A stretch of 6,794 nt of DNA, taken from the IMG/VR virus record IMGVR_UViG_2713897190_000004. One strand, given 5' to 3'. Made by a program: the position numbers and the translations under genes. The notes under the pieces were generated by a model. It was not told the origin of the DNA. It searched no databases and was given only the letters and a program-made list of their open reading frames with translations. Positions 1 through 6,794 of this stretch are shown here, one piece after another. Origin of the DNA: a virus. Lineage: Duplodnaviria; Heunggongvirae; Uroviricota; Caudoviricetes. Numbering within the stretch: position 1 is the stretch's first letter; the number at the start of each line of letters is the position of its first letter.

Positions 1-300
1 TGTTCTTCGAAGGCTGTTGGGGTACTGGCCGGGATATTTATCCTGTAGCATCTCCAGCAGAGTTGTTGGTGTCAGAGCCGGCCTCTCTTTCAACAGAGGA
101 ACAAGCATGCTGTCCCACACAGCTTCCAGAGGATCTTTGCGTGTGCGCCAGTGCCGAACACTGTTTTTTGCCCACTCTCCTTTTTCGATCCGACGACCAG
201 AACGGACTGAGATACCAGCCTTCATGGCCGAGATATGCTGAGTTATACCTTTCTTACGCTGAGTCATATAGTAACTGACCTGAGAAGTATTGAGCGTCAC
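1..300 (-). CDS. Transposase-like protein, N-terminal HTH part only; gene continues beyond the left window edge. Architecture resembles IS21-family IstA, but the IS family cannot be assigned.
   Basis: Minus-strand frame is open from position 1 up to a stop at 337..339. Candidate starts are ATG (rc of 265..267) or an upstream in-frame GTG (rc of 298..300) preceded by AGGA (rc of 307..310) at 6-nt spacing. Translation from the ATG is MTQRKKGITQHISAMKAGISVRSGRRIEKGEWAKNSVRHW..., a basic helix-turn-helix-like N-terminus typical of IS transposases. The supplied ORF track omits it because it runs off the window. Confidence 0.4.
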   Translation of the reverse strand, partial: MTLNTSQVSYYMTQRKKGITQHISAMKAGISVRSGRRIEKGEWAKNSVRHWRTRKDPLEAVWDSMLVPLLKERPALTPTTLLEMLQDKYPGQYPNSLRRT

Positions 301-385
301 GCCATTTCCTGTTGGATCATGTAAATGACACTCAGGTTACAAAACCGGCCAGAATAATCGGCGCCAGGCGGACTGAGTTATTGTC

Positions 386-596
386 GTCTCATACTCCGGT
401 TAACGATGAAACCATGCAGGAGATTAACACTCTGCTGATCGCCCTGGATAAAACATGGGATGACGACTTATTGCCGCTCTGTTCCCAGATATTTCGCCGC
501 GACATTCGCGCATCGTCAGAACTGACACAGGCCGAAGCAGTGAAAGCTCTTGGATTCCTGAAACAGAAAGCCACTGAGCAGAAGGTGGCAGCATGA
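386..596 (+). pseudogene. bet: 3' fragment of bet (Red-beta single-strand annealing protein); the N-terminal roughly 190 codons are missing.
   Basis: The translation ...[67 protein letters not shown] matches the C-terminus of lambda Bet as I recall it. Its stop overlaps the exo start (ATGA at 593..596), as in lambda. The same frame has a stop at 291..293, and residues encoded by 294..385 do not resemble Bet, so the gene is truncated or replaced at about 380..390. Confidence 0.75.
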
Positions 597-1273
597 CACC
601 GGACATTATCCTGCAGCGTACCGGGATCGACGTGAGAGCTGTCGAACAGGGGGATGATGCATGGCACAAATTACGGCTCGGCGTCATCACCGCTTCAGAA
701 GTTCACAACGTGATAGCAAAACCCCGCTCCGGAAAGAAATGGCCTGACATGAAAATGTCCTACTTCCACACCCTGCTTGCTGAGGTTTGCACCGGTGTGG
801 CTCCGGAAGTTAACGCTAAGGCGCTGGCTTGGGGAAAACAGTACGAGAACGACGCCAGAGCCCTGTTTGAGTTTACTTCCGGCGTGAATGTTACTGAATC
901 CCCGATCATCTATCGCGACGAAAGTATGCGCACCGCCTGCTCTCCCGATGGTTTATGCAGTGACGGCAACGGCCTTGAGCTGAAATGCCCGTTTACCTCC
1001 CGGGATTTCATGAAGTTCCGGCTCGGTGGTTTCGAGGCCATAAAATCGGCTTACATGGCCCAGGTGCAGTACAGCATGTGGGTGACGCGAAAAGATGCCT
1101 GGTACTTTGCCAACTATGACCCGCGTATGAAGCGTGAAGGACTGCATTATGTCGTGGTTGAGCGGGATGAAAAGTACATGGCGAGTTTTGACGAGATGGT
1201 GCCGGAGTTCATCGAAAAAATGGACGAGGCACTGGCTGAAATTAGTTTTGTATTTGGGGAGCAATGGCGATGA
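593..1273 (+). CDS. exo: Lambda exonuclease (Red-alpha, 5'-3' dsDNA exonuclease), full length, 226 aa.
   Basis: 226-aa [57 protein letters not shown]..., which is near-identical to lambda Exo as I recall it. SD-like AAGGTGG lies upstream, and the start overlaps the stop of the bet fragment. Confidence 0.95.
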
Positions 1274-1452
1274 CGCATCCTCACGATAATATCCGGGTAG
1301 GCGCGATCACTTTCGTCTACTCCGTTACAAAGCGAGGCTGGGTATTTCCCGGCCTTTCTGTTATCAGAAATCCACTGAAAGCACAGCGGCTGGCTGAGAA
1401 GATAAATAATAAACGGGAGGCGGTATGCACAAAGCATCTCCTGTTGAGTTAA
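1264..1452 (+). CDS. Small hypothetical protein of the lambda pL operon, orf60a-like.
   Basis: 62-aa ORF immediately after exo, with its ATG overlapping the exo stop region. Position and size match lambda orf60a. Function unknown. Confidence 0.7.
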
Positions 1453-1616
1453 GAACGAGTATTGAGATGGCACATAGCCTTGCTCAAATTGGAGTCAGGT
1501 TTGTGCCAATACCAGTAGAAACAGACGAAGAATTTCATACGTTAGCCACATCCCTTTCACAAAAGCTGGAAATGATGGTGGCGAAAGCAGAAGCAGATGA
1601 GAGAGACCAGGTATGA
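1425..1616 (+). CDS. Small hypothetical protein of the lambda pL operon, orf63-like.
   Basis: 63-aa ORF overlapping the previous gene by 28 nt, as the lambda orf60a/orf63 pair does. GGGAGG lies upstream of the ATG. Confidence 0.7.
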   Translation: MHKASPVELRTSIEMAHSLAQIGVRFVPIPVETDEEFHTLATSLSQKLEMMVAKAEADERDQV

Positions 1617-1626
1617 CAACCACTGA

Positions 1627-1908
1627 ATGCATTTTTCTGGCAGCGGGCTTCATATTCTGTGTGCTTATGCTTGCCGACATGGGGCTTGTTCAGTGACACC
1701 TCAGCAAGAAAACGCCCTTCGCAGCATTGCCCGTCAGGCTAATTCTGAAATCAAAAAAGCCAGACAGCAGTTTCCGGATAAAAACGTCGATGACATTTGC
1801 CGTAGCGTACTAAAGAAGCACCGCGAAACGGTAACGCTGATGGGATTCACACCGACTCATTTAAGCCTGGCGATCGGCATGTTAAACGGCGTCTTTAAGG
1901 AACGGTGA
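1627..1908 (+). CDS. Hypothetical protein in the orf61 position; start uncertain (ATG 1627 or GTG 1693).
   Basis: ORF open 1627..1908. An in-frame GTG at 1693 would give a 71-aa product, VTPQQENALRSIARQANSEIKKARQQFPDKNVDD.... Ends 3 nt before a possible small ORF at 1911. Confidence 0.55.
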   Translation: MHFSGSGLHILCAYACRHGACSVTPQQENALRSIARQANSEIKKARQQFPDKNVDDICRSVLKKHRETVTLMGFTPTHLSLAIGMLNGVFKER

Positions 1909-2006
1909 ACATGAAAAGCAAAATCATCAGGGAGCTACAGGCTCCTTTTTTATTATTCGCATTCACCCTCAAGCGTATTAACCAACAATTCAGGGATTAA
2001 TGAAAG

Positions 2007-2228
2007 ATGGCGGACATCATTGATTCAGCATCAGAAATTGAAGAATTACAGCGCAATACAGCAATAAAAATGCGTCGTCTGAACTACCAGACTATATCCG
2101 CCACTCATTGTTGTGAGTGTGGCGATCCCATAGATGAACGAAGACGCCTGGTCGTTCAGGGTTGTCGGACTTGTGCAAGTTGCCAGGAGGATCTGGAGCT
2201 TATCAGTAAACAGAGAGGTTCGAAGTGA
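2007..2228 (+). CDS. TraR/DksA-family C4 zinc-finger protein (lambda orf73-like); likely binds the RNA polymerase secondary channel.
   Basis: 73-aa ORF with the motif CCECGDPIDERRRLVVQGCRTCASC (CxxC-17-CxxC), the pattern seen in F-plasmid TraR and the DksA C-terminus. An SD-like AGGGA lies upstream. Confidence 0.85.
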   Translation: MADIIDSASEIEELQRNTAIKMRRLNYQTISATHCCECGDPIDERRRLVVQGCRTCASCQEDLELISKQRGSK

Positions 2229-2989
2229 GCGAAATTAACTATCAGGCACTGCGTGAAGCGGCAGAAAAAGCAACGTGTGGTGAGTGGTCGCTCGAATATG
2301 GAGAGAGCCGATTTGATGGTGATTATGCGCTAATTCATCGTGAAGTTGCTGGATATATTCCCATTTGCAGAATTGAAGGAGCGCATCCAGAAAGCGGTTT
2401 CGATGAAGATTTCCAAATGGAACAGCAGGCCAATGCTGAATTCATCGCCGCAGCCAATCCGGCTACTGTGCTGGCACTGCTGGATGAACGGGAAAGAAAC
2501 CAGCAATACATAAAACGCCGCGACCAGGAGAACGAGGATATTGCTCTTACTGTTGGGAAGCTGAGAGTTGAGCTTGAGGAGACAAAATCAAAACTCAACG
2601 AGCAGCGTGAGTATTACGAAGGTGTTATCTCGGATGGGGGTAAGCGTATTGCTGAACTGGAGAAAAGCGAAGAGCAACTCATTAACGAGCGTGACCATGC
2701 TGAATCTGCTTTAGCAGATATGTACTTTGCAGCAACCGGGGATGAGCCGGAGTGGAGCAACTGGTTCGGCTTTTCAGATGCTGTCGATGCCGTGGTTGAC
2801 AGAATTGCTGATTTAGAAGCTAAACAGCCATCACCAGTAGTACCGGAAGGACTGGTTAAAGCAGTGCGCTTCTATGAACAGGTTAAGCGTGAAAATCCAC
2901 CAGTCGAAACAGAGGCATGGAAAGACGCTATTGACTGGGTGCTCAAAGAGTCTTGTCAGGCTGTAAACATTGATACCAATGGAGATTGA
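2225..2989 (+). CDS. ea22: Ea22-like protein, 254 aa, with a coiled-coil-prone central region.
   Basis: GTG start overlaps the stop of the TraR-like gene (GTGA at 2225..2228), with GAGGT 6 nt upstream. The N-terminus MSEINYQALREAAE... and the central block LLDERERNQQYIKRRDQENEDIALTVGKLRVELEE..KSKLNEQREYYEGVISDG match lambda Ea22 as I recall it; the rest diverges. Confidence 0.75.
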   Translation: MSEINYQALREAAEKATCGEWSLEYGESRFDGDYALIHREVAGYIPICRIEGAHPESGFDEDFQMEQQANAEFIAAANPATVLALLDERERNQQYIKRRDQENEDIALTVGKLRVELEETKSKLNEQREYYEGVISDGGKRIAELEKSEEQLINERDHAESALADMYFAATGDEPEWSNWFGFSDAVDAVVDRIADLEAKQPSPVVPEGLVKAVRFYEQVKRENPPVETEAWKDAIDWVLKESCQAVNIDTNGD

Positions 2990-2990
2990 T

Positions 2991-3245
2991 ATGAGCACTT
3001 TTACCGACAAAGAACTGATTAAAGAAATCAAAGAGCGTATCAGCAGTTTGGATGTGCGAGACAATGTTGAGCGCCGGGCTTATGAAATTGCTCTGGCATC
3101 GCTGGAAGAGAATCCGGTGGCATGGCTGCATTCAGACAATGGCTTAGGTATTCCGGCAATAACGAGGAGTAAAAACATTGCTGACAGTTGGTTATCAAAG
3201 GGTTGGTATGTTCAGCCGCTATATATGCCAAGCCAGTGCCAGTAG
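2991..3245 (+). CDS. Hypothetical protein, 84 aa as read; probably the N-terminal piece of a frameshifted paralog of the 4004..4744 gene.
   Basis: ATG at 2991 with GGAG 6 nt upstream, 1 nt after the ea22-like stop. Its N-terminus MSTFTDKELIKEIKERISSL...RRAYEIALASLEENP parallels the N-terminus of the 4004 product (MTTITKERIELFIKNPL...MELARIALASLEREQ). Confidence 0.55.
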   Translation: MSTFTDKELIKEIKERISSLDVRDNVERRAYEIALASLEENPVAWLHSDNGLGIPAITRSKNIADSWLSKGWYVQPLYMPSQCQ

Positions 3246-3262
3246 TACCTGAAGAAAAACCA

Positions 3263-3796
3263 ATGCCTAACCCTCTTAGCATGTACGCGGTCGATGCTGT
3301 TGCCGCTATTGCAGAGGTGAGAGGCTGGAACGCCTGCCGCGCGGCTATGCTTCATGCCGGAAACTTTCGGGAAAACGCGAATTCGTCAACCAATAATTTT
3401 CGGGAAATTTCGGAAACGTCAACCAACTCTCCGGTAATTCCTGGTGAGGTGTTGTCCGCAATCCTGAAATTTGCCAGAGTTCGTGCTGATTTCGATGATT
3501 TTGACGGCGACAGGCGAGGTATCGGTGATTGTCTGGATGAGGCTGAGCAAGAGCTTATCGTTACCATTAACAAATATGCCAGTCAGTTGGCAGCAGAACC
3601 GATAGCGACTAATGACGTTCGAGAGCAGCAGACAGCCGTTCCGCCAGTTCCTGTAATACAGGCTGATGTCGCGCAAGCAATTGAAAATCTCAGGCAGAAG
3701 TTAGTGGAATGCAATCGCTATAACTACTGCGCAGATGCAGTTAAGGGCGTAGAGGATGCCTGCCACGCTGCCATGCTTCAGGGAAAAAGAGAGTGA
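3263..3796 (+). CDS. Hypothetical protein; probably the C-terminal piece of the same frameshifted gene. Start uncertain (frame open from 3185; ATG at 3263 or 3281).
   Basis: ORF in the frame of 3188..3796. No convincing SD precedes any candidate start, unlike every other gene in the operon. Contains NSPVIP, encoded by an 18-bp stretch identical to one in the 4004..4744 gene. Stop at 3794..3796 lies 1 nt before the next start. Confidence 0.5.
   Translation: MPNPLSMYAVDAVAAIAEVRGWNACRAAMLHAGNFRENANSSTNNFREISETSTNSPVIPGEVLSAILKFARVRADFDDFDGDRRGIGDCLDEAEQELIVTINKYASQLAAEPIATNDVREQQTAVPPVPVIQADVAQAIENLRQKLVECNRYNYCADAVKGVEDACHAAMLQGKRE
3362..3427 (+). repeat. Imperfect 33-bp (11-codon) tandem duplication inside the 3263..3796 coding region.
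   Basis: Two adjacent units, aactttcgggaaaacgcgaattcgtcaaccaat and aattttcgggaaatttcggaaacgtcaaccaac, encoding NFRENANSSTN and NFREISETSTN in frame. Confidence 0.6.
3424..3441 (+). repeat. 18-bp exact direct repeat (copy 1), caactctccggtaattcc, encoding NSPVIP.
   Basis: Identical 18-mer found again at 4411..4428 inside the paralogous gene. Confidence 0.8.
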
Positions 3797-3797
3797 T

Positions 3798-4007
3798 ATG
3801 GCTATTGCCGCAAGTTACACCATGCATCTCTATTGTGATTGTCGCCAGTGTACGGAAGGTGTATATCCAGTGCCAGACTTCGGTGAGTATATCGGTACGT
3901 CATGGTCTGGTTGTGCAAAAGAGGCCCGTAAAGACGGGTGGCGAATAAGCAAAGACAAAACACGTACTTTTGCGCCCGGGCATAAAGTTTTGAGGATTAA
4001 CACATGA
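3798..4007 (+). CDS. Small cysteine-rich protein, 69 aa, possible Zn-binding; function unknown.
   Basis: ATG at 3798 with AGAGAG upstream. Translation MAIAASYTMHLYCDCRQCTEGVYPVPDFGEYIGTSWSGCAKEARKDGWRISKDKTRTFAPGHKVLRINT has a C-x-C-x2-C cluster plus a distal Cys and His. Its stop overlaps the next start (ATGA at 4004..4007). Confidence 0.6.
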   Translation: MAIAASYTMHLYCDCRQCTEGVYPVPDFGEYIGTSWSGCAKEARKDGWRISKDKTRTFAPGHKVLRINT

Positions 4008-4744
4008 CCACTATTACCAAAGAACGTATTGAATTGTTCATTAAAAATCCGCTTGAAAACGGGCTTACTCGTGGCGAACAAATGGAACTAGCACGAATTG
4101 CACTGGCATCACTGGAACGCGAACAGATTCGCCACGAGCATGCCAAATGGTCTGACTCCACATTTGGCTGCGTTGGCCCCATTGGTCCACTGAAACACCT
4201 CTCAAAAGAGGCACTGGAAGCCGCAGCCGAACCAGACGATCTTAGCGAGTGGGCTGATATGCAGTTTCTGTTGTGGGATGCACAGCGCCGTGCTGGCATC
4301 AGCGATGCTGAAATTACCGTTGCTATGGAAGATAAATTGAAGATCAACATGGAGCGCCAGTGGCCTGAGCCAAAAGATGGTGAGCCTCGCTTGCACATTA
4401 AAGAACCCGGCAACTCTCCGGTAATTCCGGATGGTTTATCCACGGTATGCGCTGAGGCTTATCAGGTTGTAGGAGTTATGGCAGATGCGCTTGGTGTATT
4501 CGGTGATGCAGCAGTACAGAAAGTTCTGGATAACCTGTCACAGCAAAAACTTGTTCACAGAGATGTGCTGCCGTTCTCGCTTCCGGTAACTCCGGATGGT
4601 TGGGTTATGGTTCCTAAACAGGTAACGCCGGAAATCAGCAACGCGATAAACGTTGTGGGTCAACGCTGTACATGCGGAAATTGCTCTCAGCGGTTGTGGG
4701 ATTTATTACTCGACGCCACACAGCAAGGAGTTAACCGTGGCTAA
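4004..4744 (+). CDS. Hypothetical protein, 246 aa; intact paralog of the 2991..3796 locus.
   Basis: ATG at 4004 with GAGGA 7 nt upstream. Shares the IALASLE N-terminal motif and the NSPVIP motif with the upstream locus. C-terminus contains CTCGNC. Confidence 0.75.
   Translation: MTTITKERIELFIKNPLENGLTRGEQMELARIALASLEREQIRHEHAKWSDSTFGCVGPIGPLKHLSKEALEAAAEPDDLSEWADMQFLLWDAQRRAGISDAEITVAMEDKLKINMERQWPEPKDGEPRLHIKEPGNSPVIPDGLSTVCAEAYQVVGVMADALGVFGDAAVQKVLDNLSQQKLVHRDVLPFSLPVTPDGWVMVPKQVTPEISNAINVVGQRCTCGNCSQRLWDLLLDATQQGVNRG
4411..4428 (+). repeat. 18-bp exact direct repeat (copy 2), caactctccggtaattcc, encoding NSPVIP.
   Basis: Identical to 3424..3441. Flanking bases differ on both sides. Confidence 0.8.
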
Positions 4745-5021
4745 CCTGCAACTTGCCGTTAAAGGTGAATACTTCGATGCCATGATTCGCGGAGAGAAAA
4801 CGGAAGAGTATCGCCTGTGTAATGACTACTGGAAAAAGCGCCTCGTTAACCGTAAGCATGACCGCCTGATTATCACAAAGGGATATCCGAAGCGCGACGA
4901 TTCCAGCCGCAGAGTTGATGTTCCGTATGACGGATATGAAGTGAAGACAATCACACATCCGCACTTCGGTGATAAACCGGTAAAGGTATACGCGATAAAG
5001 GTAAATATCGGCACTGAATAA
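4737..5021 (+). CDS. ASCH/PUA-like domain protein (putative), 94 aa from the GTG start.
   Basis: GTG at 4737 preceded by AAGGAG (4725..4730) at 6-nt spacing, overlapping the stop of the previous gene. The N-terminal LAVKGEYFDAMIRGEKTEEYR resembles the G-x-K-T-x-E-x-R signature of ASCH-domain proteins (for example E. coli YqfB), from memory. Confidence 0.6.
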   Translation: MANLQLAVKGEYFDAMIRGEKTEEYRLCNDYWKKRLVNRKHDRLIITKGYPKRDDSSRRVDVPYDGYEVKTITHPHFGDKPVKVYAIKVNIGTE

Positions 5022-5046
5022 CAATCCGCACAACACAAGGTCAAGA

Positions 5047-5286
5047 ATGTTCAGAGTGATTTACCCTAACACCTGGTACGTCGACCACCACGGCACTCCC
5101 TGCAAAATCCTGCGTTCCACTCACAACAAAGTTCACTACATCCGAAAAGGCAGAACATGTATCGCCAGCATGTTCCGCTTTAATCATGACTTTGAACCTG
5201 TGAATAAAGCTGACGCAGATCGGATAGCTGAAGAGATCGAAACAGCAGAACACATTAAGAAGTTACGTGCCATACGCAGGAAATAG
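5047..5286 (+). CDS. Hypothetical protein, 79 aa, basic C-terminus.
   Basis: ATG at 5047 with AAGG 6 nt upstream. Last gene before the AT-rich spacer that precedes xis. No recognisable motif. Confidence 0.55.
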   Translation: MFRVIYPNTWYVDHHGTPCKILRSTHNKVHYIRKGRTCIASMFRFNHDFEPVNKADADRIAEEIETAEHIKKLRAIRRK

Positions 5287-5425
5287 AAAAATTGATAAAT
5301 TCAATACTGCATTTCTCAGCATTAAATTTATCTCTATGACCAGTCAAGAGATGTACCTGCCATGAGCTTAATATCATGTCAGATATATCGGTCACAAACT
5401 CCCTCAGCAGCTAAGAGGAGGACAA

Positions 5426-5662
5426 ATGTCTCGACTAATCACTTTACAGGACTGGGCTAAAGAAGAATTTGGGGACTTAGCACCAAGTGAGCGAGTTCTG
5501 AAAAAATACGCGCAAGGGAAAATGATGGCCCCACCCGCTATAAAAGTTGGTCGCTACTGGATGATTGACCGAAATTCCCGTTTTGTAGGAACGCTTGCAG
5601 AACCGCAACTCCCAATAAACGCAAACCCAAAACTCCAACGGATAATCGCTGATGGCTGCTAG
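5426..5662 (+). CDS. xis: Excisionase (lambda Xis-family winged-helix recombination directionality factor).
   Basis: 78-aa ORF with a strong SD (TAAGAGGAGG) upstream. Sequence ITLQDWAKEE...APPAIKVGRYWMI parallels lambda Xis (LTLQEWNARQ...FPPPVKDGREYLF). The 3' end overlaps the int start by 11 nt. Confidence 0.85.
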   Translation: MSRLITLQDWAKEEFGDLAPSERVLKKYAQGKMMAPPAIKVGRYWMIDRNSRFVGTLAEPQLPINANPKLQRIIADGC

Positions 5663-6794
5663 ACCCCGATCTCACAAAATCTCTATACCCAATTTATATT
5701 GCAAATTAGATAAGCGAACCGGAAAGGTATATTGGCAATACAAACATCCACTATCCGGTCGTTTTCATAGCTTAGGAACTGATGAGAATGAAGCAAAACA
5801 AGTTGCTACTGAAGCAAATACCATTATTGCTGAACAACGTACCCGACAAATATTAAGCGTCAATGAGCGTCTAGAAAGAATGAAAGGCAGGCGCTCAGAC
5901 ATTACGGTGACAGAATGGCTTGATAAATATATTTCTATCCAGGAGGACAGGCTGCAACATAATGAACTAAGACCCAACTCCTATCGGCAAAAAGGCAAAC
6001 CCATTCGTCTTTTCCGTGAGCATTGTGGAATGCAACACCTCAAGGATATTACCGCACTTGATATTGCCGAAATAATTGATGCTGTAAAGGCTGAAGGTCA
6101 TAACAGGATGGCGCAAGTCGTGAGAATGGTGTTGATCGACGTCTTCAAAGAAGCACAACACGCAGGACATGTTCCGCCAGGATTTAACCCAGCGCAGGCA
6201 ACAAAACAACCGCGAAATCGAGTAAACCGCCAAAGATTATCACTGCCCGAATGGCAGGCAATATTTGACAGCGTAAGCAGACGGCAGCCCTATTTAAAAT
6301 GCGGGATGCTACTTGCTCTTGTCACTGGACAACGTTTAGGCGATATCTGCAATTTGAAATTCTCTGATATCTGGGACGACATGTTGCACATTACTCAGGA
6401 AAAAACCGGTTCAAAACTTGCTATTCCGCTTAACCTGAAATGCGATGCTCTGAATATTACCCTTCGTGAAGTTATATCTCAGTGCAGGGATGCTGTTGTT
6501 AGTAAATATCTGGTCCATTACCGTCACACTACCTCTCAAGCAAACAGAGGAGACCAGGTGTCTGCAAATACTCTTACAACGGCTTTTAAAAAGGCCAGGG
6601 AAAAATGTGGCATAAAATGGGAGCCAGGAACTGCGCCCACATTTCATGAGCAGCGATCTCTGTCAGAACGGTTATATCGGGAACAGGGTCTGGATACGCA
6701 AAAGTTGTTAGGTCATAAATCCAGAAAAATGACCGACCGATACAATGATGATCGTGGTAAAGACTGGATTATCGTAGATATCAAAACAGCATAG
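5652..6794 (+). CDS. int: Tyrosine integrase, lambda Int family, full length 380 aa; divergent from lambda Int.
   Basis: Clear similarity to lambda and HK022 Int over the catalytic domain: LVTGQRLGDICNLKFSDI, KTGSKLAIPL, PTFHEQRSLSERLY, LLGHKSRKMTDRYNDDRGKDW. The catalytic R, K, H-x-x-R, H and Y positions are all present. The stop codon is the last 3 nt of the window. Confidence 0.95.
   Translation: MAARPRSHKISIPNLYCKLDKRTGKVYWQYKHPLSGRFHSLGTDENEAKQVATEANTIIAEQRTRQILSVNERLERMKGRRSDITVTEWLDKYISIQEDRLQHNELRPNSYRQKGKPIRLFREHCGMQHLKDITALDIAEIIDAVKAEGHNRMAQVVRMVLIDVFKEAQHAGHVPPGFNPAQATKQPRNRVNRQRLSLPEWQAIFDSVSRRQPYLKCGMLLALVTGQRLGDICNLKFSDIWDDMLHITQEKTGSKLAIPLNLKCDALNITLREVISQCRDAVVSKYLVHYRHTTSQANRGDQVSANTLTTAFKKAREKCGIKWEPGTAPTFHEQRSLSERLYREQGLDTQKLLGHKSRKMTDRYNDDRGKDWIIVDIKTA

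Follow-up and report, generated by a model that had tools for sequence, protein, structure and literature searches.

The stretch between ea22 and xis of a phage-21-like prophage as a mosaic of independently assorting accessory genes

Positions 2991-5286 (the stretch) of a 6,794-nucleotide (nt) piece of DNA (the window) from a virus of the Caudoviricetes (IMG/VR record IMGVR_UViG_2713897190_000004) carry six open reading frames, ORF1 to ORF6, between an ea22-like gene and xis. The stretch is made up, mosaic-fashion, of accessory genes that assort independently and does not form one evolutionary or functional unit. [quoted passage not shown] Its contents would be a split gene (ORF1/ORF2), a zinc-binding-like protein (ORF3), a DUF550 enzyme (ORF4), an ASCH/PUA-like protein (ORF5) and a DUF4222 protein (ORF6). 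A previous sequence-only reading had regarded the same genes as a compact, translationally coupled cassette for which an anti-defence or exclusion role was conceivable.

Independent assortment of the genes

At least 80% of the stretch is present in 88 of 5426 complete Escherichia coli genomes, whereas fragments of it occur in 4251. These 88 genomes constitute one lineage, which matches phages ev017 and PhiR57_1 over the stretch, and the full-length matches listed are 100% identical. The whole stretch is found in 3 of 431 matching phage records. For a survey of IMG/VR the 80 closest matches to each of three anchors, i.e. ORF3, ORF5 and the DUF550 domain, were used, and the full architecture was present in 4/80, 4/80 and 2/80 loci, respectively, next to dozens of other gene orders; these frequencies are rough, as the samples include redundant contigs. 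Thus, in the survey of gene neighbourhoods that the sequence-only reading had itself suggested, the genes turn out to occur independently, which, together with the backbone joint described below, largely contradicts the co-inherited functional unit it had envisaged.

The borders of similarity to other phages give the same picture at the level of single genes. HK022, P22 and 933W carry different gene subsets in the same slot, and similarity to other phages starts 12-14 nt upstream of start codons, namely at 2977 and 4726 for HK022, at 3785 for Shiga toxin (Stx) phages and at 3990 for P22. Each module therefore carries its own Shine-Dalgarno (SD) sequence and start codon, and coupled junctions survive module swapping because each module brings its own ribosome-binding site. 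Another joint, the one with the phage-21 backbone, lies at 4737/4738, on the start codon of ORF5, so that the stretch straddles it: in a blastn comparison phage 21 aligns with the window over 393-2218 at 96.3% and over 4738-6794 at 97.4% nucleotide identity, 2219-4737 is absent, and the stop codon of the TraR gene immediately adjoins the ASCH start. The true indel relative to the phage-21 backbone is thus the block 2219-4737, and ORF5 and ORF6 are members of the backbone rather than of the block. On a larger scale, the location that had been suggested for the genes, a slot of variable content that lambdoid prophages have between ea22 and xis, is borne out by a conserved upstream block followed by differing content in phage 21, HK022, P22 and 933W. 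The content is indeed unlike that of λ, which has ea8.5 and orf55 at this place.

The close packing that had been taken as a hallmark of a cassette is real, but it is not particular to these genes. The junctions had been given exactly: TGA 2987-2989 is followed by ATG 2991 and TGA 3794-3796 by ATG 3798, stop and start share ATGA at 4004-4007, and GTG 4737 overlaps TAA 4742-4744. Along the stretch the spacing between stop and start codons amounts to +1, (+17), +1, -4, -8 and +25 nt, i.e. the genes have overlapping or near-abutting stop and start codons, from which translational coupling is predicted. The same packing is found outside the stretch (bet/exo -4, exo/DUF1317 -10, DUF1317/DUF1382 -28, TraR/ea22 -4, xis/int -11). 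Good SD sequences, previously ascribed to almost all of the genes, are present in front of ORF1, ORF4 and ORF5 (anti-SD duplex energies of -6.4, -6.0 and -8.0, respectively), whereas that of ORF3 is moderate (-5.1), that of ORF6 weak (-3.3), and ORF2 has none (-1.0 at ATG 3263).

The suggested anti-defence or exclusion role received no positive support. Scans of ORF1-ORF6 gave no PADLOC match at E≤0.1 and nothing in NCBIfam, and none of the six carries an anti-defence name (Ral, Lar, Ocr, Acr, Atd1 etc.) in Pfam, PHROGs or NCBIfam, a dedicated anti-defence library not being among the collections searched. The sole PADLOC match links the ea22-like gene, which is not part of the stretch, to JetC (E 0.028) and is a chance coiled-coil similarity. 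We regard it as extremely improbable that the genes constitute a coherent cassette working as one soon after infection, be it for anti-defence, superinfection exclusion or host takeover. Such a cassette would agree with the tight coupling, with the early (pL) position of the genes in the same operon as Ral and Gam, and with the fact that the slot does hold anti-restriction genes, as illustrated by a Lar-family restriction-alleviation pseudogene that occupies this slot, two genes upstream of an ASCH gene, in a prophage of Shiga toxin-producing E. coli. However, besides the lack of PADLOC matches, the genes assort independently, the interval straddles the joint between backbone and insert, all copies of the lineage have the frameshift in ORF1/ORF2, and coupling is a property of the entire operon.

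Table 1. Features of the window with their positions (nt), strands and supporting evidence
Feature	Position	Strand	Evidence
End of ISEc10 (IS21-family), inserted in bet	1-399	-	istA ends of ISEc10 in many E. coli genomes, 99-100% identical
Backbone: 3' part of bet, exo, DUF1317 (orf60a-like), DUF1382 (orf63-like), orf61-like, TraR/DksA zinc finger (orf73-like)	393-2218	+	Identity to phage 21; PGAP and phage 21 annotations; Pfam
2.5-kb block: ea22-like gene, ORF1/ORF2, ORF3, ORF4	2219-4737	+	Exact blastn gap relative to phage 21
Ead/Ea22-like gene, 254 amino acids (aa)	2225-2989	+	Pfam PF13935, E 4e-40
ORF1, 84 aa, N-terminal fragment of a frameshifted multi-module gene	2991-3245	+	phrog_5117/660/3323; PGAP 'frameshifted'
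Frameshift site, TATATAT-G in the window and TATATATAG in intact relatives (one A lost)	3220-3227	+	Junction alignment across loci
ORF2, rest of the frameshifted gene, 177 aa from ATG 3263	3227-3796	+	phrog_14306, E 3e-110
ORF3, 69 aa, Cys-rich	3798-4007	+	phrog_926
ORF4, 246 aa, P22 EaA-like	4004-4744	+	Pfam PF04447; identity to P22 EaA; invariant residues
ORF5, 94 aa, GTG start, ASCH/PUA-like	4737-5021	+	phrog_625, E 5e-49
ORF6, 79 aa, DUF4222	5047-5286	+	Pfam PF13973
xis (5426-5662) and int (5652-6794), phage-21 type	5426-6794	+	Pfam Exc; phrog_629; icd adjacent in matching genomes

Properties of the individual genes

Where the ratio of nonsynonymous to synonymous substitution rates (dN/dS) is measurable, the ORFs are real genes under purifying selection. 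Relative to diverged full-length copies in the fetched loci dN/dS is 0.20 for ORF1, 0.04 for ORF3, 0.13 for the N-terminal module of ORF4, 0.10 for DUF550, 0.27 for ORF5 and 0.21 for ORF6, and full-length variants of ORF3, the ORF4 N-terminal module, DUF550, ORF5 and ORF6 contain no internal stops. The frameshift in ORF1/ORF2 and the insertion sequences in the prophage (ISEc10 here, IS100 or ISEc52 in sister genomes) might suggest that the prophage is degenerating and the stretch mere decaying sequence without a functional ORF. Yet the dN/dS values of 0.04-0.27 and the absence of stops, the intact DUF550 catalytic residues, and the presence of the identical stretch in PhiR57_1 (host given as ECOR13) and ev017, both of which were deposited as phages, all argue against this idea, which we consider very improbable.

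ORF1 and ORF2 form one modular gene, which a 1-nt deletion has split or inactivated. Intact relatives (loci L105, L164 and L104) have CTATATATAGCC where the window has CTATATAT-GCC and are read without interruption as ...QPLYIAKPVPVVPEE..., and the deletion is present in 13 of the 13 fetched copies of the lineage. PGAP marks 2991-3442 as frameshifted pseudogene, and ATG 3263, the start codon of ORF2, lies 17 nt past the stop codon of ORF1 and lacks an SD sequence. In HK022 gp36 (HK022_36) the N-terminus of ORF1 and the start of ORF2 are combined in one frame of 121 aa, and relatives in IMG/VR are single-frame as well. Insertion of a TA dinucleotide, a frameshift mechanism derived from HK022 alone, was dropped for the 1-nt deletion after alignment of closer intact relatives. 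Hence, of the 'five or six genes' counted previously five stand, six do not, as ORF1 and ORF2 count as one gene split by the frameshift. The 'paralog pair' likewise holds in part: ORF1 and ORF4 share an N-terminal module of ~48 aa, with 31% pairwise identity (E 0.23) and with matches of both to phrog_3323 (E 5.5e-10 and 1.1e-13, respectively), but nothing beyond that module.

ORF2 contains a WNACRAAML motif, a tandem duplication of a 33-nt linker, an NSPVIP linker (3425) and a module that we term ORF2b. The latter is found inside intact proteins of 279-538 aa from other prophages, which have a similar N-terminal module followed by the WNACRAAML motif, a GNFREN/NNFREI linker and an NSPVIP segment. 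The two copies of the duplication (3362-3426) are 78% identical and yield NFRENANSSTN and NFREISETSTN in ORF2; it recurs in intact relatives from other prophages.

The linker NSPVIP[DG], encoded by AACTCTCCGGTAATTCC, connects protein modules at 3425-3441 and 4412-4428 of the window, and also at 4582-4601. In 249 fetched, partly redundant ea-region loci the motif occurs 214 times on the plus strand and not once on the minus strand, and the 17-nt coding sequence of the linker is found twice in the window (3425 and 4412) and 81 times in the fetched loci. Proteins of the ea slot have a shared N-terminal module of ~45 aa (MTTITKER...ELARIALASLE), swappable internal and C-terminal modules (DUF550, DUF551-like, ORF2b and others) and NSPVIP[DG]GW linkers, and at the level of DNA the linker may be a joint at which domains are shuffled. 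Recombination between the two linker copies of the window would delete everything from ORF2b through the DUF550 domain. One may speculate that the ea-slot proteins, i.e. ORF1/ORF2, ORF4/EaA and the relatives of 279-538 aa, are polymorphic early effectors that shuffle their domains at this linker DNA and that at least one module, most concretely DUF550, counters nucleotide-based host defence, but we deem this idea in its entirety quite doubtful.

For ORF3 a profile search retrieved 305 representative clusters, all of them small stand-alone proteins. C13 is invariant in this family, C18 is usual, a Cys at 57 or 59 and a His or Cys at 62 are common, and A43, G47, W48 and P60 are near-invariant. 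This Cys/His pattern suggests a putative zinc site, and ORF3 is probably a zinc-binding protein outside any known family or fold. A profile built from 99 relatives matched no family in Pfam; in the Protein Data Bank (PDB) it gave a marginal match to a ZF-HD homeobox (E 0.009), which was judged a coincidence of a short A..GWRI motif.

ORF4 is by profile match and conserved residues a member of the MazG-type dATP/dGTP pyrophosphohydrolase family with its predicted catalytic residues intact. It starts with the same N-terminal module as ORF1, followed by DUF550 (nt 4127-4414) and two NSPVIP/LPVTPDGW linkers, and its C-terminal module is short and contains Cys. Pfam PF04447 matches with E 8.2e-42 and 141.8 bits (cut-off 23) over profile positions 1-96 of 97. 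ORF4 shares the full-length DUF550 domain with P22 EaA (78% identity over the domain) and has a near-identical N-terminal module; at the C-terminus the two proteins differ, as P22 EaA ends in a DUF551-like domain. In an alignment of ORF4 with homologues from P22 and from Klebsiella, Pseudomonas and Mycobacterium phages K68, E69, E72, E82, D85, R96, K111 and R118 are invariant, and ORF4 has the acidic residues of the MazG-type ExxE ... ExxD pattern as well as phosphate-binding basic residues. A sequence search with ORF4 against the PDB gave no matches, and we found no functional study of P22 EaA in the literature. RefSeq/PGAP cuts ORF4 into a 'pseudogene' (4004-4129) and a shorter DUF550 coding sequence with an internal start (L001 9616-10356; L002 7869-8609), which looks like an annotation artefact, the frame being open and collinear with P22 EaA.

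Most likely ORF4 would hydrolyse purine (deoxy)nucleoside triphosphates ((d)NTPs) to (d)NMP and pyrophosphate and thereby trim the purine (d)NTP pool. Biochemical data on the DUF550 family, as cited in two reports, come only from the Z-genome Acinetobacter phage SH-Ab 15497, where dATP and dGTP are converted to dAMP and dGMP plus pyrophosphate (PMC12884076, PMC8342488). MazZ-type enzymes of Z-genome phages and ORF4 have the MazG-type acidic residues in common, but the context of MazZ includes PurZ and DatZ whereas that of ORF4 does not: neither purZ nor datZ is present within the window, nor do the flanks of matching prophages contain them, so the locus does not present the PurZ/DatZ/MazZ cluster that characterizes a Z genome, and ORF4 is not linked to 2-aminoadenine DNA. 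Distant DUF550 homologues in Mycobacterium phage Balomoji and Pseudomonas phage MD8 adjoin nucleoside deoxyribosyltransferase-like genes, and in Balomoji a gene for a second nucleotide diphosphohydrolase adjoins the DUF550 gene, too; this setting is one of nucleotide salvage, unlike the lambdoid ea slot.

Rather than a cassette, a single gene might serve in anti-defence, most concretely ORF4 by removing a purine nucleotide (dGTP/dATP, (p)ppGpp or a signalling nucleotide) that is required or produced by host immunity, or, in second place, ORF3 as a zinc-protein inhibitor of a host factor. Here, the intact catalytic residues of ORF4 and the purifying selection on it fit, as does the widespread occurrence of the small ORF3 family, whose function is unassigned, and there is a precedent in the MazG-like phage protein Atd1, which protects against TIR-STING toxicity via depletion of (p)ppGpp (bioRxiv 10.1101/2022.06.09.495361). 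Atd1, however, is a MazG-like protein different from DUF550, the DUF550 activity described in the Z-genome reports cited above is hydrolysis of dATP and dGTP, and the location of DUF550 beside nucleotide-salvage genes in other phages points to metabolism rather than to counter-defence, making a role of this kind unlikely.

ORF5 is 89% identical to gp37 of phage 21 and belongs to a family named ASCH at NCBI that comprises 642 clusters. The Pfam ASCH profile (PF04266) stays under the threshold (E 0.029, 15.5 bits, cut-off 21.2), with 12 of 24 relatives matching at E<0.1, and a search of the PDB with an ASCH profile gave no matches. An AlphaFold2 model (pLDDT 79) finds ASCH proteins as best Foldseek matches in the PDB, namely 3iuw (probability 0.97), 2z0t, 1xne and 5y6c/5gus, all weak (E≥0.03, TM score 0.45-0.51). 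These best matches would point to the small β-barrel-like fold of ASCH proteins such as those from E. faecalis (3iuw), PH0355 and ZmASCH, whereas the sequence similarity lies below the Pfam threshold and no catalytic or ligand residues are assignable. On this basis we designate ORF5 as ASCH-like with moderate confidence, and it probably binds a nucleotide or nucleic acid. The VNRG* C-terminus upstream of the ASCH gene, the AGGAG SD sequence and the GTG start are common to the window (4726-4744) and HK022 (L005 4209-4228), although the upstream genes are otherwise unrelated; in phage 21 the ASCH gene has an ATG at the same start position, directly after TraR.

As ORF4 and ORF5 are adjacent and their frames overlap by 8 nt, one might think of a two-gene nucleotide module (MazG-type plus ASCH/PUA-like) that echoes the PUA-MazG-HAD defence systems, the more so as a MazG-like effector substitutes for Calcineurin-CE in rare PUA-Cal-HAD variants (bioRxiv 10.64898/2026.01.15.699771). 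Co-occurrence, though, speaks against a functional DUF550-ASCH pair: ASCH is present in 5/80 loci anchored on DUF550 and DUF550 in 5/80 anchored on ASCH. Moreover, phage 21 has ASCH without DUF550, no ASCH is annotated beside eaA of P22 (neighbours eaI and eaG), and a mosaic joint coincides with the junction of ORF4 and ORF5, so that we give next to no credence to such a module.

ORF6, which had been called a 79-aa orphan, has a family: Pfam DUF4222 (PF13973) matches with E 6.4e-19 and 67.7 bits (cut-off 27) and comprises 111 clusters in Enterobacterales. The protein is 92% identical to gp36 of phage 21. A literature search for functional studies of DUF4222 and of ASCH in prophages yielded none.

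Genomic context of the stretch

The prophage is phage-21-like (Jouyvirus) and integrated at icd. From position 390 to its end the window is 100% identical to the prophage beside icd in E. coli ATCC 25922, clone D i14 and other B2-type strains, and over the stretch identity is likewise 100% to two phages on deposit, ev017 (NC_049948, genus Jouyvirus) and PhiR57_1; related prophages align with the window only from position 390 on. All genes lie on the plus strand, in the direction of pL, in the order bet-exo-DUF1317-DUF1382-orf61-like-TraR/DksA-ea22-[ORF1-6]-xis-int, and pL, N, ral, cIII, kil and gam are located upstream in the matching prophages and in phage 21, confirming the placement on the pL strand. 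Phage 21 has 96-97% nucleotide identity over exo-TraR, ASCH, DUF4222, xis and int and the same icd integration module, but it proceeds straight from TraR to ASCH, i.e. without ea22, ORF1/2, ORF3 and ORF4. Sister genomes carry IS100 or ISEc52 elsewhere in the same prophage instead of ISEc10 in bet. In the window ISEc10 is situated between pL and the stretch and could be polar on it.

Among possible signals, a strong intrinsic-terminator-like hairpin (1929-1957, plus strand; 8 bp followed by TTTTTTATTATT) is located inside the pL operon, between the orf61-like and TraR/DksA genes, and is presumably read through via N antitermination. Within the stretch no surplus of promoter-like sites was detected and terminator-like matches were weak, and an Rfam scan of the entire window (E≤1) gave no match. 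The region between ORF6 and xis (5287-5425) has 1 mismatch to phage 21 across 161 aligned nt, whereas the ASCH and DUF4222 genes beside it are less conserved, with ~93% identity. A 39-nt AT-rich inverted repeat in it (5294-5332) was rejected as a hairpin since its stability is no better than that of shuffled sequences (z -1.2), the intergenic region simply being near-identical to phage 21.

An early accessory region

The exo-xis region is defined by a conserved block, orf60a-orf63-orf61-orf73-ea22, followed by genes that vary in number and kind (PMC8614690). In λ, Phi24B and Stx phages it is expressed early from pL, is dispensable, and alters lysogenization, induction and host gene expression (PMC8614690, PMC3824215, PMC10789677). 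The stretch resembles the regions of λ and Stx phages in being located on the pL strand between exo/ea22 and xis, in the conserved block and in the variable set of small genes in front of xis, and 933W has homologues of ORF3 (L0067), EaA (L0065) and ASCH (L0064), P22 having eaA. It differs in that its combination of genes is confined to one lineage (ev017, PhiR57_1 and the prophages of B2 strains) and in that none of the exo-xis phenotypes studied so far is assigned to these five genes.

Based on this position we suggest that the genes belong to the N-antiterminated delayed-early pL operon, so that they would be co-transcribed early and, like their neighbours in the operon, translated in a coupled fashion, with module exchange at joints 12-14 nt upstream of the start codons keeping the coupled junctions intact. 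By analogy with the exo-xis regions mentioned above, each of the genes may then act separately as a dispensable early modulator of host physiology and of the balance of lysis/lysogeny and induction, ORF4 presumably via the nucleotide pool.

Several points weigh against the reading of the stretch as a mosaic of independent early accessory genes, in addition to the rough frequencies in the IMG/VR samples. What the five genes may do is deduced from family membership and position, and ORF3, ORF6 and the ORF2b module offer no functional clue. In the window's own genome the region may be cut off from pL by ISEc10 in bet (1-399), rendering expression uncertain there. Finally, low co-occurrence is compatible with pairwise cooperation in this particular phage.

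The stretch is ordinary and already known in kind, as the families of all its genes are catalogued and the identical sequence has been deposited and annotated (ev017, NC_049948). It represents a textbook case of lambdoid mosaicism, in a region whose variability is on record, and is of little significance as it stands, domain shuffling at the NSPVIP linkers being its one intriguing feature. Nevertheless, the genes are highly conserved, early-expressed by position and present in thousands of prophages of E. coli, Stx phages among them, while for all of them a function is unassigned. The putative purine-dNTP pyrophosphohydrolase of the EaA type and the family of small, probably zinc-binding ORF3 proteins may thus be regarded as pointers to early host conditioning by temperate phages.

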